Source: a virus (taxonomy: Duplodnaviria > Heunggongvirae > Uroviricota > Caudoviricetes). From it: a stretch of 10,321 nucleotides of DNA. How positions within the stretch are numbered: position 1 is the stretch's first letter; each line of letters opens with the position of its first letter. The notes beneath the pieces were generated by a model that was given only the letters and a program-made list of their open reading frames with translations, did not search any database and was not told where the DNA came from. Made by a program: the position numbers and the translations under genes. The DNA is taken from IMG/VR virus record IMGVR_UViG_2802429251_000008, positions 1 to 10,321 of that record. The stretch is one strand, 5' to 3'. Shown one piece after another: positions 734-7,544 of the stretch.

Positions 734-1810
734 TCAGAGCAGTAAGTACGTTTTTTCCCTCTCATCAAGATACATTTTTGTTGTCTTCTCCGATGTGTGG
801 CCAAGTAGACGCTGAGCAAATTCTTCTCCACATGTTTCTTTGTACAATCGTCCAGCCAGACTTCTGATCTCGTGAAAAGTTGGTGGGTTTTCACTGAACT
901 GGATACCTGTTAATTTTCTGGCTGCGACAAATTTTTTTGTCAGGCCGTCCGGGTGAATGCTGCCGTCAGGGCTGTTTTTTCTAATCCCGGCACTGATTAG
1001 ATAATCTCCCCGGCTTACCAGGCGGCACTGTTCAACTACTGTACCAAGCCGTAGACCAGCGACAGGAAGGCTGAGTGACAGGGGGATAGCAATCATCATT
1101 CCTGTCTTAATTTGCCTGATGTGGAGACGATCATCATAAATATCACTAAACCGCATATTCGTTATGTCTTCGCGACGTTGTCCTGTTACAAGGGCTAAAT
1201 CCATAGCTAATGGGAACCATGCCGGAAGTTGATCTGCTGCCTCCCTGATGCAGTTGTATGTCTTTAGTTTCAGTCGTTCTCTTGTAACTACTATTTTCGG
1301 TGCTCTTGTTGGTGTTACTGGATTTTGAGATATACGTCCTTCAACAATGGCCTCACGAAACATATCAGACAACACAGAACGCATTGATCCTGCCATTGTG
1401 TTTTTCCCTCCTTCAATCCACAAATCAAGAAACTCGGCAATATGGCGAGTGGTTATTTCTGTCAGTAAAATCTCTCCCAATTTTTCTTTTATTGTCTCCA
1501 GTTGATTTACCCGAATTTTATAAGTATTTCTGGACACTTTTCTCCTTATAAGAATCGTTTTGTAACGTTCAATCCAGTCTGCCATAGTAAATGAGTCGAG
1601 CCCTTTAAGCTTTTCAATTAAGGCAGCAGGAGAGTAGTTTTTGTATATATAATGATTTGCTTCAATTGCCTGCGCTACTGCATCTCTTCTTGAAATTTTA
1701 CCTAGTGTAAATTCTTCTTTCGTCAGAGGGTTGCGCCAGTAATATGCTTTGTCCCTCCTTCGATATGTTAAGTTTTTAGGCAAATTGGGATCGTATTTTT
1801 TCCGCTGCAT
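734..1810 (-). CDS. int: Lambda-family tyrosine integrase
   Basis: 358 aa; aligns by eye with lambda Int (PNLYxR..YY, TGQRxxD box, HExRSL..RLY box, LLGH...Y C-terminal catalytic Tyr). SD GGAGAAG 7 nt upstream of ATG at 1810. Confidence 0.9.
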
Positions 1811-2057
1811 GTTTTAACTTCTCCAGTAACGGACTGTCTCTCCCTTGTCGCCCATTAGGCTGATGGTGTGTTATATCGGTATCAACCTTATTTGGGTTGA
1901 TATAGAAAGCCTCCGGAACCACCCTGTAACTCCTCCCGTGTAGTTCAGGTGCAGGATAAATGTTTCCATTCCTTGCCCATCGTCTCAGCGTTGATATTGA
2001 TGGTGGGTTATCCGGATATCTGAGTTTTCCCCACGTTTTGAGTGTCACAAGATTCAT
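1776..2057 (-). CDS. xis: Excisionase-like DNA-binding protein
   Basis: Immediately upstream of and overlapping int by 35 nt (lambda xis/int arrangement); basic small protein. Start moved to the second in-frame ATG (2057), which has SD AGAGG at proper spacing. Confidence 0.65.
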   Translation of the reverse strand: MNLVTLKTWGKLRYPDNPPSISTLRRWARNGNIYPAPELHGRSYRVVPEAFYINPNKVDTDITHHQPNGRQGRDSPLLEKLKHAAEKIRSQFA

Positions 2058-2079
2058 TGCCATACCTCTTACGATATGA

Positions 2080-2108: not shown

Positions 2109-2163
2109 ATGTGGTTGATTTTTAATAATCAGCTATGAAGTTCTAATTTGTATATAATGCAAC

Positions 2164-2352
2164 TCACGAGGACAGAAGTTTCTCGCAATTAAAATTTATC
2201 AGCTTTACTTTCTGCTCTCTGGAAACGCCTGCTTCTTTTTTCCCTGAGAGCATTTTTTCGCATTCTGATTTCGTTAATTTAGATTTTGAATATCTTGTCC
2301 AGTTAGTAGGAGTGCCACCTTCCTTTTCAATAGTGGCAGTAATTTTATACAT
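2164..2352 (-). CDS. Small hypothetical protein (Rac ydaC position)
   Basis: 62 aa from ATG at 2352 with strong SD GGAGGT 4 nt upstream; start overlaps the lar stop by 8 nt (translational coupling). Assignment by position only. Confidence 0.5.
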   Translation of the reverse strand: MYKITATIEKEGGTPTNWTRYSKSKLTKSECEKMLSGKKEAGVSREQKVKLINFNCEKLLSS

Positions 2353-2575
2353 GAACACCTCCATTATTATTTCCAGTAGTTCGTTTATTCCATCTTTCGA
2401 GTGCTTCTTTTTCACTTCCACTATAGCCGGTTCGGGATTCGCATCCGTTACACTTTGCGCGGTAATATCCTGAAATGGCTTTCACCGTTACTGATGGACA
2501 ACCACAAAATGGACATGGTTTGACTTTTGTGTATCGCACTGGTTTTTCTCCTGTGAGCTTTGTGGCTGCGCTCAT
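2345..2575 (-). CDS. ralR: Lar/RalR-family restriction-alleviation protein (Cys4 zinc-binding)
   Basis: Contains CPFCGC...CNGCES Cys4 motif typical of the Lar family; sits between exo and the small ORF as ralR does in Rac. Start chosen at ATG 2575 (SD GGGGAG 8 nt upstream), overlapping the exo stop as ATGA. Confidence 0.7.
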
Positions 2576-3252
2576 TTCCATTGCTCCCCAAATACAAAAC
2601 CAATTTCAGCCAGTGCCTCGTCCATTTTTTCGATGAATTCTGGCACCATCTCGTCAAAACTCGCCATGTACTTTTCATCCCGCTCAACCACGACATAATG
2701 CAGGCCTTCACGCTTCATACGCGGGTCATAGTTGGCAAAGTACCAGGCATCTTTTTGCGTCACCCACATGCTGTACTGCACCTGGGCCATGTAAGCCGAC
2801 TTTATGGCCTCGAAACCACCGAGCCGGAACTTCATGAAATCCCGGGAGGTGAACGGGCATTTCAGCTCAAGGCCGTTGCCGTCATTGCATAAACCATCGG
2901 GAGAGCAGGCGGTGCGCATAGTCTCGTCACGATAGATGATCGGGGATTCAGTAACATTCACGCCGGAAGTGAACTCAAACAGGGTTCTGGCGTCGTTCTC
3001 GTACTGTTTTCCCCAGGCCAGCGCCTTAGCGTTAACTTCCGGAGCCACACCGGTGCAAACCTCGGCAAGCAGGGTGTGGAAGTAGGACATTTTCATGTCA
3101 GGCCATTTCTTTCCGGAGCGGGGTTTTGCTATCACGTTGTGAACTTCTGAAGCTGTGATGACGCCGAGCCGTAATTTGTGCCACGCATCATCCCCCTGTA
3201 CGATAGCTCTCACGTCGATCCCGGTACGCTGCAGGATAATGTCCGGTGTCAT
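2572..3252 (-). CDS. exo: Lambda exonuclease (Red alpha)
   Basis: 226 aa, near-identical to lambda Exo from memory ([17 protein letters not shown]...GFVFGEQW); start overlaps the bet stop. Confidence 0.95.
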
Positions 3253-4034
3253 ATTGCCACCTTCTGCTCTGCGGCTTTCTGTTTCAGGAATCCAAGAGCT
3301 TTCACTGCTTCGGCCTGTTTCAGTTCTGACAATGCATGAATGTCGCGGCGAAATATCTGGGAACAGAGCGGCAATAAGTCGTCATCCCATGTTTTATCCA
3401 GGGCGATCAGCAGAGTGTTAATCTCCTGCATGGTTTCATCGTTAACCGGAGTGATGTCGCGTTCCGGCTGATGTTCTGCAGTGCATGCGGTATTTTCGAC
3501 AATGCGCTCGGCTTCATCCTTGTCATAGATACCAGCAAATCCGAAGGCCAGACGGGCACACTGAATCATGGCTTTATGCCGTAACATCCGTTTGGGATGC
3601 GACTGCCATGGTCCGATGATTTCTTTGCCTTCTCGGGTTTTGAATGGTTCGCGACGGCACTCATCCATCCACTCGGTAACGCAGATCGGATGATTACGGT
3701 CCTTGCGGTAAATCCGGCATGTACATGATTCATTGTCCTGCTCAAAGTCCATGCCATCAAACTGCTGGTTTTCATTTATGATGCGGGACCAGCCATCAAC
3801 GCCCACCACCGGAACAATGCCGTTCTGCTTATCAGGGAAGGCGTAAATCTCTTTCGTCCACGGATTAAGTCCGTACTGGTTGGCGACGATCAGCAGCGCG
3901 ATGAATTGCGCATCGCTGGCATTACCTTTAAATGCCGTCTGGCGAAGAGTGGCGATCAGTTCCTGCGGGTCGACAGAATCCATGCCGACGCGTTCAGCCA
4001 GCTTCCCGGCCAGTGTTGCAAGTGCTGTACTCAT
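3249..4034 (-). CDS. bet: Lambda Bet single-strand annealing protein (Red beta)
   Basis: 261 aa, near-identical to lambda Bet from memory ([27 protein letters not shown]...). Confidence 0.95.
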
Positions 4035-4039
4035 TCGTT

Positions 4040-4339
4040 TTATACCTCTGAATCAATATCAACCTGGTGACGAGCAATGGTTTCAACCATGTACCGGATG
4101 TGCTCCGCCACACGTTCCTGAAATTCAACATCGTCATCAAATGCGCGACTGATTGCCTGTTTGCTGGCACCGTGGCGTTGCAAATGGTCGATGCAGAGCG
4201 ATTCAAACAGATGCTGGGGCAGACCTTTTTCCAGGTCGTCCGCCAGCGCCGTTTCTTTTTCTTCGCGAACGATTTGCTGGTAGTGGCGTGACCATGCCTG
4301 CTCTTCAATGCGATCAAAAATTGGGCATGTACTCATCAT
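4040..4339 (-). CDS. gam: Gam, RecBCD inhibitor (short GamS-length form)
   Basis: 99 aa; from residue 13 onward matches lambda Gam C-terminal 86 residues (SRHYQQ...HQVDIDSEV). The first 12-15 residues differ from lambda and the upstream frame is occupied by the ORF672 3' end. Confidence 0.9.
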
Positions 4340-6332
4340 CCGTCACCCCAAAATTTTCAAGTTTGTTTGCAATCATCATTGCAATACCCGGAATTAATGG
4401 CGCTGAGGCTATACCCGCAGGATTTGCACATAAACCGTAAACCGCTGCAATCACCACTTGTCTTTTCCAGTCGAGTTTTTCTAATGATGAAGCTGCTGCT
4501 TCGCCAGTTTCATCACTGCAATCGCGATGCGGATCGCTGCCATCGTTCTCCTTGTGCGGATGTTCAGCACCTTCCATTTCCTCCAGACCTTTTTCCTGAT
4601 ATTCATTCTGATTTTCTTCATTAAAGGTTTTCTGATACGTTGCGTCGCCCATCACCGCGCCGCAGTCAGGACAGTTGCCGCCGCCAGCCTGACCGCAGGC
4701 GATGCAAACTTTCTCCGTTTCCTGTTGTTGCACTACTGGCTCAGGCTGTTTCGTTTCTGGCTCGTTTTGTTGCGTATTTGGGTCGTTCTGTTCCGCTTTT
4801 TGGTCGTTATGTTCCGTTTCTGGCTGATTCTGGTACACAGAGTCGCGGGTCTGGATCCCCTTAACCCATTTCGGATCATTCGGGTCGCTAATCCCTTCAA
4901 CAAATTCTCCGCGAGAGGCAGCCAGTAATTTGTCTGCATCGACAGGATTTTTGGGCGGAATGTTTTTCCGGGCTTCATGGAGTTCTGCCCGCAGTTTCTG
5001 ATATTTCGCATCAACAGAATTTACCTGTGACTGAGCATCCAGCGACTGCGTGTCCTGATGATGTTCAGTTGCATCCGGTTCCACTGTTTCAGCCGTTGCC
5101 TGTTCATCTGCCATTGCGCAAGATGGTTGCAGTTTTTCTTCATCATCCTGTTTTTCTTCTTCTGTTACACGCTGCGGCATCGGGGCAGAGGAACGACCGC
5201 AGGCAATATCCACGATTTCTGGATCAGGGTTGGCATGATCAGTTTCAGTCAGTACTTTGTTTAGATATTCAGTGACGTGTGCGGGGATAACCTCGATCCC
5301 AATTGGTGCTTCTTTTACGGACGCAACCACGATGGCGCGGGAATAATCCAGCCCGCCAGGCATGGTGATGAATTTGTCGCGGAAAACAGAAAAGGGCGGT
5401 TTATTTTCAGCGATAATTTCCTCGACACGTTTAGCGTGTGCCGGATGAAGGTTATAAATGTCCACGTCCATTGAACGAGCCAGTACGCCAGTGGCTACGT
5501 CGCGCGCCAGTGACGTCAGATCGTGAACGAAACCTTCGCCGCGATCGGTGAGGTTCCCGCCGCCAGCATTAGCGCCGGAAGCCGTGCGCGTGATGCGTGA
5601 AACACGATTTCCTTTCATCCACTCTTTTGTCAGCAGACCACGATCGGTGTAGTCTGCGTCCAGGTATGCTTCGAAAAAAGCAGTCATCAGCCCCAGGCTT
5701 GAATTGCCTGGATTAGGGAAAACTCTGTCAGTATCACGCACCAGTTTGTGGAGATCGCGAATTTCCAGCGGGTCGAGCAGGCTGGTTTTGTGGGAAACAG
5801 CCAGGGCAGTAACAGCTGGTAGTTCTTCAGCTCGTGCAATGTGTAATGCCTGGAGTTCGTCGCGTGAAACGTGCGTTACCGGTTTTTCGCTGCCGTGTTG
5901 AGCAAGCCAGCGAATGGGCAGCTCCTGACCGGAAATCGGGAGTAGCATATTCTCCTCAATCTCCGTCATGTCTTCGCCATTAACATTGGTATTGTCAGTG
6001 CTGGCTGGTTTGTCCTGCGCAGAGGATGAGGGCGCGATAAATACCATTGTGATGCCATCTTCCCCGCCTTTTTCGTAACGGTTGCAGAATTCCGTATCAA
6101 ATACGCCCTCTGGTGGAAGGTCATCAACAACGGGCAAATTGACGCGAACAGGTTTTTTAAAGTCATCTTCATCGTAGCCAGCATCGTCAATCGCAACAGC
6201 ACCACGGGATATGGCAATGGATAATTTTTTCGCTTCAGCCCAGTAGAAACCGCCTTTAATACCGAGACGTTTTCTTACTTTGTCATTTTTTGCTTCGTAA
6301 TACAGTGGGTAAACTTGTTTATCGGTGCTCAT
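4314..6332 (-). CDS. Large uncharacterised early-operon protein; possible RecE N-terminal-region relative without a nuclease domain
   Basis: 672 aa uninterrupted; SD GAGG upstream of ATG 6332; stop overlaps gam start by about 26 nt. Globular N-terminal region, acidic low-complexity middle, five heptapeptide repeats, CxxC-x9-CxxC zinc ribbon, and a Gly/Ala/Pro-rich hydrophobic C-terminal tail. Occupies the recE slot of Rac. Confidence 0.75.
4736..4850. repeat. Degenerate 21-bp tandem repeats inside ORF672
   Basis: Units such as GGTCGTTCTGTTCCGCTTTTT / GGTCGTTATGTTCCGTTTCTGG on + strand; encode [35 protein letters not shown] on the minus-strand frame. Confidence 0.6.
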
Positions 6333-6401
6333 TGTTTTTTAACCTCAACTCAGATTAAAATTACTGCGAGTGATGAATAAATGTCCTAGGTTCTTCACTC
6401 A

Positions 6402-6432
6402 GGCCTGCACAGTGTGCAGGCTTTCTTTTTTT
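6402..6432 (+). terminator. Plus-strand-oriented hairpin plus T-tract inside the leftward operon
   Basis: 9-bp arms GCCTGCACA / TGTGCAGGC (6402-6420) then TTTCTTTTTTT (6422-6432), abutting the racC-like stop. Oriented against the surrounding genes. Confidence 0.4.
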
Positions 6433-6707
6433 CAGATTTCACCTTTTAATTTCATTGCAATCAGAGTTGCCAGAAATTCGGCTTTTTTTTCTGCGGGCAG
6501 ATTCTTTCCTATGTGCACCAGACACATTTCTTTAACACCATCGTTAAGTGTTTTAACGTTGCCTGATGGACCGTCGATATCAACCACAGTGAATGGGGTT
6601 TCTTTATTTTCTGTCTTAATCACGTAGCCAATACGCTTTCCTTCCAGGGTAACTTCGTGAACAATGTCATCAGTAGTAACAACAGTGGCTTCATAACTGG
6701 TAATCAT
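6432..6707 (-). CDS. racC: RacC-like small protein
   Basis: 91 aa from ATG 6707 (SD AAGGAG 6 nt upstream); size and position match Rac racC. Symbol assigned by size and synteny, not sequence recall. Confidence 0.55.
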   Translation of the reverse strand: MITSYEATVVTTDDIVHEVTLEGKRIGYVIKTENKETPFTVVDIDGPSGNVKTLNDGVKEMCLVHIGKNLPAEKKAEFLATLIAMKLKGEI

Positions 6708-6781
6708 GTTTTTCTCCTTAATTAAGGTTGATCGAATCCCTGCCATTGCTGGCATAAATTCAGTTTCGGATAGTCAGTTAA

Positions 6782-6952
6782 TTAAAGTTCGTGTGCCATC
6801 TGGTCTTTTTCGGCACAACTTTCACTACAATATTTTTTCATTTCCGTCGTTGGGATAACTCCACGCATGAAATGAAGAGGTCTTTTAATACTTTTGCTTT
6901 CTTCAATTTCTTTATTGCAAAGGTGGTAAGCACATTTTATTTTCTTAGTCAT
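6782..6952 (-). CDS. ydaE: YdaE-like small Cys-rich zinc-binding protein
   Basis: 56 aa, below the 60-aa ORF-track cutoff and found by manual translation: [56 protein letters not shown] (CxxxxC...CxxxC). Start overlaps upstream stop as TGATG. Size and order match Rac ydaE. Confidence 0.55.
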   Translation of the reverse strand: MTKKIKCAYHLCNKEIEESKSIKRPLHFMRGVIPTTEMKKYCSESCAEKDQMAHEL

Positions 6953-7173
6953 CACCATGACTCCGCCTTTACAGGTAAACCATCACGACCGAGGAAGACT
7001 TTAATCATGCAGTCAGAAATGCATGTTTTTGTAGTCAGGTTACGAATATAAAGTTTTCGCTTTTTAATATTGTTTGCCGAGGCGATATATGTCCGGCCTT
7101 CATGAAGAACATAATCACCAGGAGTCACACACTGACGTGGTATTTCATCAGTTCCGAAGTGATGTGCAATCAT
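6952..7173 (-). CDS. kilR: KilR-like small protein (candidate FtsZ/cell-division inhibitor)
   Basis: 73 aa from ATG 7173 (SD GGAG 6 nt upstream; the track start at 7185 overlaps the SD). Size and order match Rac kilR. Function inferred from Rac. Confidence 0.55.
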
Positions 7174-7248
7174 AATTATCTCCATTTTTACAAATGAACT
7201 TTGTTGATGCGGTGCCTGGCGCCTCCAGGTGACTGCAACCAGTTAACA

Positions 7249-7277
7249 ATTACAGTCGGCTTTCCCACCCAAACCAA
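7249..7277 (-). promoter_or_regulatory. Candidate sigma70 promoter for kilR-ydaE-racC
   Basis: Minus-strand -35 TTGGTT (7277..7272), 17-bp spacer, -10 TGTAAT (7254..7249); the leader would contain the CCTGG-n5-CCAGG hairpin. Confidence 0.25.
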
Positions 7278-7346
7278 TAAGGACTAACATGACTTTTAAC
7301 TGTGCCGCGTGCGCTTAGCCGCATTCACCGCATCACAAAATTCACT

Positions 7347-7392
7347 TTAAAAAGGGGCGGCAGGGCAGCCACGGAGTAGAACTGATGCCGCC
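7347..7392 (-). terminator. Candidate leftward intrinsic terminator
   Basis: On minus strand: stem GGCGGCA (7392..7386) / TGCCGCC (7362..7356), 23-nt loop, then CC + TTTTT (7353..7349). Long loop lowers confidence. Confidence 0.3.
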
Positions 7393-7516
7393 AAAGACTA
7401 CACATAGCAATGTCGTTATTTACAACCGGAGGCGCACTCCCACCATTTAAATTTAACAGACAAGACCGACTCTTTATGAATACCGGAAATGCACCTTCGT
7501 GTTGTGCGCCTGTCTT

Positions 7517-7544
7517 TTTACCACTTCAGGCTCGGTGGTATACT
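7517..7544 (+). promoter_or_regulatory. Extended -10 promoter for the + strand 64-aa ORF
   Basis: TGgTATACT (7536-7544) with -35-like TTTACC (7517-7522) at 16-bp spacing; ATG at 7579 preceded by TAAGG. Confidence 0.4.

Follow-up and report, generated by a model that had tools for sequence, protein, structure and literature searches.

Phage lambda carries a 138-aa gam ORF, of which residues 41-138 constitute GamS. The long and short products, GamL and GamS, are two isoforms, both active on over-expression (PMC5218532). In the stretch of DNA analysed here (10,321 nt, hereafter called the window), gam is present only as a short ORF with a non-lambda N-terminus, and it is overlapped on its 5' side by a RecE-like ORF of 672 aa, ORF672. 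Does this arrangement denote a chimera formed by recombination within gam, with loss of GamL, or is it a usual form of the gene? Our analyses indicate that the ORF is very probably a Gam gene that is both functional and typical of its family, carried next to yebY by a Rac-like lambdoid Escherichia coli prophage; homology would assign it RecBCD inhibition.

The 99-aa gam ORF first detected from the sequence alone is real. Its protein matches the Pfam PF06064 profile with 189.9 bits (cut-off 25; E = 8.7e-57), residues 5-99 aligning with profile positions 4-98 of 98, and a phmmer search of the PDB identified lambda GamS (2UUZ/5MBV; E = 5e-50), to which it is 82% identical overall. The naming as Gam rests on Pfam and the PDB, since NCBIfam has no matching model. 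The ORF starts with two adjacent ATG codons, that at 4339 giving 99 aa and that at 4336 giving 98 aa; the latter is the start used by PGAP and the Met position conserved in the family. Verbatim matches to both the 99-aa (P0001) and the 98-aa (P0002) proteins were found in public collections, P0002 being identical on 273 public contigs with the annotation 'host-nuclease inhibitor Gam family protein'. The gene is ordinary and already known, as public databases carry its protein under the right name. The coordinates of all features are collected in Table 1.

Table 1. Features of the window around gam, DNA homology blocks and junctions between the RecE-like ORF (RecE-N) and gam in related prophages
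Feature	Position	Strand	Remarks
int	734-1810	-	
xis	1776-2063	-	
Rac (K-12) homology block	2114-2550		blastn 94.1%
Red module with lambda/933W DNA homology, from gam codon 8 to exo end	2561..4315	-	blastn 93.5% over 1755 nt
exo (lambda exonuclease, YqaJ domain)	2572..3252	-	96.3% nt identity to lambda exo
bet (Red-beta/RecT-family annealase)	3249..4034	-	94.9% nt identity to lambda bet
gam CDS, 99 aa	4040..4339	-	Pfam PF06064, lambda GamS identity, exact database matches
gam codons 8-30	4247..4315	-	protein conserved; third positions far more diverged from lambda than the rest
gam codons 2-7 (STCPIF), hypervariable N-terminal tip	4316..4333	-	top-entropy window; also last codons of ORF672 in another frame
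177-nt segment, neither lambda nor Rac	4316..4492	-	encodes the C-terminal tail of the RecE ORF and the first gam codons
ORF672, RecE (exonuclease VIII) N-terminal region and 59-aa tail, without nuclease domain	4314..6332	-	672 aa
Shine-Dalgarno-like GGGGTGA	4343..4349	-	within the ORF672 3' end; last three bases are the frame-closing TGA (4343-4345)
Rac (K-12) homology block	4493-5994		blastn 88.9%
Rac (K-12) homology block	6325-7539		blastn 89.5%
RecE-N/gam junction, window			23-26-nt overlap
RecE-N/gam junction, PhiR5_2			4-nt ATGA overlap
RecE-N/gam junction, Salmonella prophage			2-nt gap

Several elements of the sequence-only reading of the start region were borne out. The gam frame is shut upstream by a TGA that lies two codons ahead of the initial ATG, several other stops following farther up, and the region 5' of gam is used by the 3' end of ORF672, whose own TGA (4314-4316) lies within gam, an overlap of 26 nt. 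The suggested ribosome binding site, GGGGTG, is present at 4344-4349. Its spacing is 4 nt to ATG 4339 and 7 nt to ATG 4336, either of which is acceptable, and by manual alignment GGGGTGA pairs with the 3' end of the 16S rRNA over 7 bp including one G-U. A 107-aa ORF in another frame of the same strand (3994-4317, minus) also overlaps gam. In a relative, a protein has been called in this frame and is present in the databases as a 92-aa entry (P0094, starting with MIALKSWHG...). It almost certainly reflects a miscalled frame and not a gene.

Could a sequencing error or a frameshift conceal a full-length Gam frame, as had been envisaged? This is excluded. We searched complete E. coli genomes with a 701-nt query running from the end of ORF672 through gam into the start of bet. 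Eight independent genomes match it with 98.7-99.7% identity, the best being the chromosome of the mouse-gut E. coli M8 (99.7% over 701 nt), and of 5426 complete genomes, 92 cover 80% or more of the query. The recurrence of the locus in independent genomes, together with that of the 98-aa protein on public contigs, rules out an artefact. Furthermore, tblastn and blastn searches detected no remnant of the 40-codon GamL extension of lambda anywhere in the window, in any frame. A hidden or frameshifted GamL was also looked for specifically, and tblastn and blastn-short gave chance-level hits only, the best one (E = 0.07) being on the wrong strand and in the wrong place. The claim that only a short Gam can be made here thus holds, given the TGA upstream and the lack of homology to the extension.

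The same reading took the short form to be a departure from the usual gene, which it is not. The PF06064 model itself has 98 positions, and 94 of the 120 best cluster representatives of Gam are 98 aa long. In the aligned representatives the initiator Met precedes the conserved Trp by 14 residues, whatever the tip, and ATG 4336 of the window fits this register. In the current records of both lambda (KT232076) and 933W, Gam is annotated as a 98-aa protein. We then walked upstream in frame from gam at eight loci, namely those of the window, lambda, 933W, PhiR5_2 and four from Salmonella. The 138-aa frame is open in lambda alone, as a 40-codon extension with an ATG. The gam gene of 933W is 99% identical to that of lambda, yet a 1-nt insertion throws the upstream ATG out of frame, so that 933W cannot make a 138-aa Gam. 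The insertion site lies in a segment homologous to the GamL extension (933W 2830-2950 versus lambda 1360-1480, in locus-extract coordinates), and stop codons intervene. A stop is found one codon upstream of gam in PhiR5_2, and in the four Salmonella loci the frame extends upstream by no more than 14 codons.

The ribosome binding site of GamS and its ATG (ttcAGGAGttcagccATG) are kept from lambda to the Salmonella prophages; the ribosome binding site/start (ttcAGGAGttcagccATGAACGC) is conserved among lambda, 933W and Salmonella prophages. Judging from these comparisons, the short Gam appears to be the ancestral, conserved form of the family, and the 138-aa frame of lambda a lineage-specific extension.

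The gam gene of the window is intact and under strong purifying selection. All 27 invariant columns of the family are retained, and comparison with lambda over codons 31-98 yielded a pN of 0.037 versus a pS of 0.42. An AlphaFold2 monomer model built from 38 family members, of moderate confidence (pLDDT 71), is all-helical, with helices at residues 4-37, 41-54, 59-68 and 70-97, and Foldseek searches with this model returned 5mbv_A and 2uuz as top matches with a probability of 1.00. As in lambda, gam is directly upstream of bet and exo, all on the minus strand. The protein thus shares with lambda GamS (2UUZ, 2UV1, 5MBV) its family, its length, the position of its start relative to the conserved Trp and its place before bet-exo, as well as the predicted all-helical fold with a long N-terminal helix. 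The upstream neighbour of lambda gam is kil plus an intergenic region, whereas in the window it is an overlapping nuclease-less RecE ORF, and lambda has the in-frame extension that the gene of the window lacks. Based on the identity to lambda GamS and on the published mechanism, the protein is likely to bind and inhibit RecBCD.

Other phage anti-RecBCD functions have been described, including a GamL-type protein of phi80, Mu Gam, P22 Abc2 and T7 gp5.9, all specified by recombination or early regions of the phage genomes (PMC12315714, PMC9836394); 'GamL' in PMC12315714 designates the phi80 protein type and not the long isoform of lambda. Mu Gam acts by binding to DNA ends and Abc2 by binding to RecC, and these phage analogues are unrelated to the Gam of the window in sequence or mechanism. 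None of the four was detected in the window.

The genetic environment is that of a Rac-like lambdoid E. coli prophage, which in matching genomes adjoins yebY-copD. In addition to the genes of Table 1, the minus strand carries a DUF1187 gene and ralR between xis and exo, and racC-like, ydaE and kil genes past ORF672. Compared with the RecE-RecT region of Rac in K-12, the kil, ydaE, racC-like, ralR/RalA and DUF1187 components are Rac-like, with 89-94% DNA identity. In contrast, the RecE nuclease domain and recT are missing, and a 59-aa tail and gam-bet-exo are found instead. The pattern of blastn blocks (Table 1) thus describes a Rac-like prophage in which gam-bet-exo has replaced the RecE nuclease domain and recT.

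Several small RNAs were also recognized in the window. The RalA antitoxin sRNA gave a full-length Rfam match (223.8 bits, 2168-2346, plus strand) that overlaps a 78-aa Lar/RalR ORF (2345-2581, minus strand), the two forming, as they do in Rac, a type I toxin-antitoxin pair (RalR/RalA). The SraC/RyeA and SdsR/RyeB pair is at 462-606, on both strands, between yebY (1-342) and the integrase gene, which indicates that the prophage is inserted beside a chromosomal sRNA locus. A DicF-family antisense RNA match (7355-7406, minus strand; 60.9 bits versus a gathering threshold of 48) is located in the early-left region, upstream of the kil-like gene.

The ORF that overlaps the start of gam is 81% identical to K-12 RecE over RecE residues 40-587 of 866, after which the alignment stops. 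It matches the N-terminal Exonuc_VIII family (PF06630, 130.8 bits) and, with a score of 1196.8, under the cut-off of 1269, positions 1-600 of the 877 of the NCBIfam model NF007259. By both the RecE alignment and NF007259, the C-terminal catalytic nuclease domain of RecE is absent from ORF672. The 59-aa tail found instead (4314-4495) is unrelated to RecE, and its motif, L(D/T)(W/Y)..Q..IAA..GLCANP...IP..A..IA, is kept in three lineages despite low DNA identity. Versions of RecE with this tail, from E. coli, Shigella phages and Salmonella, are always directly upstream of gam. Since the amino-acid sequence of the tail has been preserved in three diverged lineages, the 'truncated' RecE appears to be a maintained protein and architecture. 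Nuclease-less 'RecE-2' proteins occur in lambdoid Rec modules (PMC12315714), and ORF672 may correspond to these. A strong transmembrane helix in the tail was considered and is unsupported, the Kyte-Doolittle maximum over 19 residues being a borderline 1.62. Scanning of positions 3900-4700, including the stretch between ORF672 and gam, found no promoter or terminator, and so gave no support for an independent gam transcript.

The combination of a RecE-N ORF, its tail and gam-bet-exo is found in PhiR5_2, phiSTEC1589-Stx1c, the Shigella phages 75/02 Stx and POCJ13, and the Stx prophages of E. coli O104:H4 genomes. In a Salmonella prophage, the RecE-N ORF ahead of gam has 572 aa. PhiR5_2, phiSTEC1589-Stx1c, the Shigella phages and O104:H4 all have a 98-aa Gam with no long frame, like the window. 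The DNA of the PhiR5_2-type relatives is ~84% identical to that of the window, uniformly so after codon 7 of gam, and their tip is MNAWLIP where that of the window is MSTCPIF.

How, then, is gam joined to its surroundings? For the 177-nt segment that is neither lambda nor Rac, a distant blastn search against 50,697 phage records returned only six PhiR5_2-type records, with 76% identity and the same layout. A protein search with the 61-aa tail retrieved only six short fragments annotated 'partial exodeoxyribonuclease VIII'. Neither the phage records nor the protein search revealed an independent source gene for the segment. On the other side, past its first residues gam had been described as almost identical to lambda. 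The nucleotide alignment does not bear this out, since over residues 8-98 identity amounts to 84.6% for the protein and 83% for the DNA, with exo and bet at 96.3% and 94.9% DNA identity. The divergence is uneven, as protein identity to lambda is ~67% for residues 8-31 and 91% for residues 32-98.

A maximum chi-square scan against lambda placed a change-point at nt 90 of gam (codon 30, ~4246/4247), a position that rests on ~70-90 nt and ~13 synonymous sites. Identity to lambda is 62% to the left of it versus 88% to the right (permutation p ~0.001), or 68% versus 88% when the tip is excluded (permutation p ~0.007), and third codon positions are identical at 10/23 versus 50/68 (Fisher p = 0.012). 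Rate heterogeneity rather than recombination might conceivably lie behind this change-point. The same break at codon 30 appears between lambda and PhiR5_2, but none is found between the window and PhiR5_2 after codon 7. As the break from lambda is common to PhiR5_2 and absent between the window and PhiR5_2, the 5' third of gam would group with the RecE-tail lineage, and its 3' two-thirds, together with bet and exo, with the lambda-like pool. Furthermore, because the boundary is common to the ~15%-diverged PhiR5_2 lineage, it would be old and predate the split between that lineage and the window. The recombination joint proposed inside gam therefore stands only in part: a boundary does exist within the gene, and blastn homology ends at 4315 in codon 8, but the boundary is best placed around codon 30 and is old. 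From these alignments, the gam mosaic boundary appears to be real, ancient and typical of lambdoid phages.

The extreme N-terminus is a separate matter. The first residues do differ from lambda at positions 2-7 (STCPIF versus NAYYIQ), but D8, R9, E11, Q13 and W15 are shared, and the non-lambda stretch is thus shorter than had been claimed. In a 38-member alignment, residues 2-7 form the most variable six-residue window of Gam, with a mean entropy of 1.60 versus 0.52 bits elsewhere. At least eight tip types were distinguished, namely MNAYYIQ, MNAWLIP, MNAYLTY, MSTC/YPIF, MNAWHTY, MSQSFIF, MAAYHFQ and MGAYYVQ, and the nucleotide identity of codons 2-7 to other gam alleles is 43-52%. Between the window and PhiR5_2, the tip patch is 52% identical, its flanks are 76% and 85% identical, and homology picks up again on either side. 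The notion of the tip as a recombination scar special to this locus is contradicted by this family-wide variability and by the homology to PhiR5_2 that flanks the tip on both sides. The tip rather appears to be a local hypervariable patch and not a recombination joint. An origin of MSTCPIF from MNAWLIP by a pair of indels (frameshift) was checked by eye on the aligned DNA and is unconvincing.

In the GamS dimer, one N-terminal helix inserts deep into the 3'-ssDNA channel of RecB (PMC5218532). Among the PDB chains, the RecB-inserted one, 5mbv_A, is the only one with all 98 GamS residues modelled; the second 5MBV chain and the free GamS crystal forms have 75-89 residues modelled. Judging from this difference in chain length, the tip probably takes on order only when it is inside RecB. 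The potency of the protein could differ from that of lambda Gam, given that its RecB-entering tip is the divergent part, with a proline at position 5.

Against this background, a recent recombination in gam at around residues 8-16, joining a foreign N-terminus to lambda gam and producing a GamS-only chimera devoid of GamL, is very unlikely. The abrupt stop of the blastn homology to lambda/933W, the RecE-like gene upstream where kil would be in lambda and the open 138-aa frame of lambda are all consistent with such a chimera. Nevertheless, the layout and the tail are common to relatives in E. coli, Shigella and Salmonella that are 16-24% diverged in DNA, so that the joining event was not recent. 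The divergence of gam from lambda past codon 8, with its change-point at codon 30, also speaks against it, as does the status of the short form as the rule in the family, GamL being missing even in 933W. Decay of gam within a cryptic Rac-like prophage, leaving an unexpressed or nonfunctional remnant, is very improbable. The Rac-like backbone and a recE truncated relative to that of K-12 might suggest decay, but the ORF is intact and lacks none of the family-invariant residues, purifying selection is strong, the identical protein recurs on public contigs, the regulatory genes are intact, as are bet, exo, int and xis, and the RecE tail is conserved as a protein in the three diverged lineages.

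More is to be said for an adaptive tip, in which residues 2-7 would be under diversifying selection imposed by the RecB channel or by defences that sense Gam or are inhibited by it, MSTCPIF being functionally distinct; we nonetheless hold this to be unlikely. It would account for the tip being the top-entropy window of the family, for the numerous types with conserved length and Met, for the dip in identity to PhiR5_2 between better-conserved flanks and for the full-length chain being modelled only when inserted in RecB. Gam also counteracts KwaB of the Kiwa defence system (PMC11785009), a further point in its favour. Nevertheless, several tip types are found side by side among E. coli prophages, whose target RecBCD is the same. 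Saturation extends to the synonymous sites of the patch, relaxed constraint at a helix end fits the same data, and in the lineage of the window the overlapping frame of ORF672 places a further constraint on these codons. As the synonymous sites of codons 2-7 are saturated and number only ~3, dN/dS is uninformative for the tip. The more specific proposal, that the tip is a hypervariable cassette under diversifying selection and that MSTCPIF, dual-coded with the end of the nuclease-less RecE, is a functionally distinct variant, we regard as distinctly unlikely.

The preferred reading remains that of an intact, family-typical Gam. The gene would be transcribed in an early-left operon composed of kil, ydaE, the racC-like gene, the nuclease-less recE, gam, bet and exo. 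Translation would start from ATG 4339 or 4336, by means of the GGGGTGA sequence buried in the end of the upstream ORF. By analogy with lambda GamS, the protein would form a helical dimer, with an acidic body acting as a duplex-DNA mimic at the entry site of RecBCD, and the long N-terminal helix of one subunit would plug the 3'-ssDNA channel of RecB. Linear phage DNA and the substrates of Red recombination would thereby be protected.

The same gene layout is already present in published Stx and Shigella phage genomes. The comparisons argue for GamS, and not the 138-aa frame, as the conserved gam product, which bears on the annotation of lambda gam; the choice of form for recombineering or cell-free systems is touched by this conservation as well. 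For the biology of the family, the tip of the helix that enters RecB is the most variable part of Gam, and a RecE that lacks the nuclease domain but has a conserved tail appears to accompany gam-bet-exo stably in one lineage of prophages.
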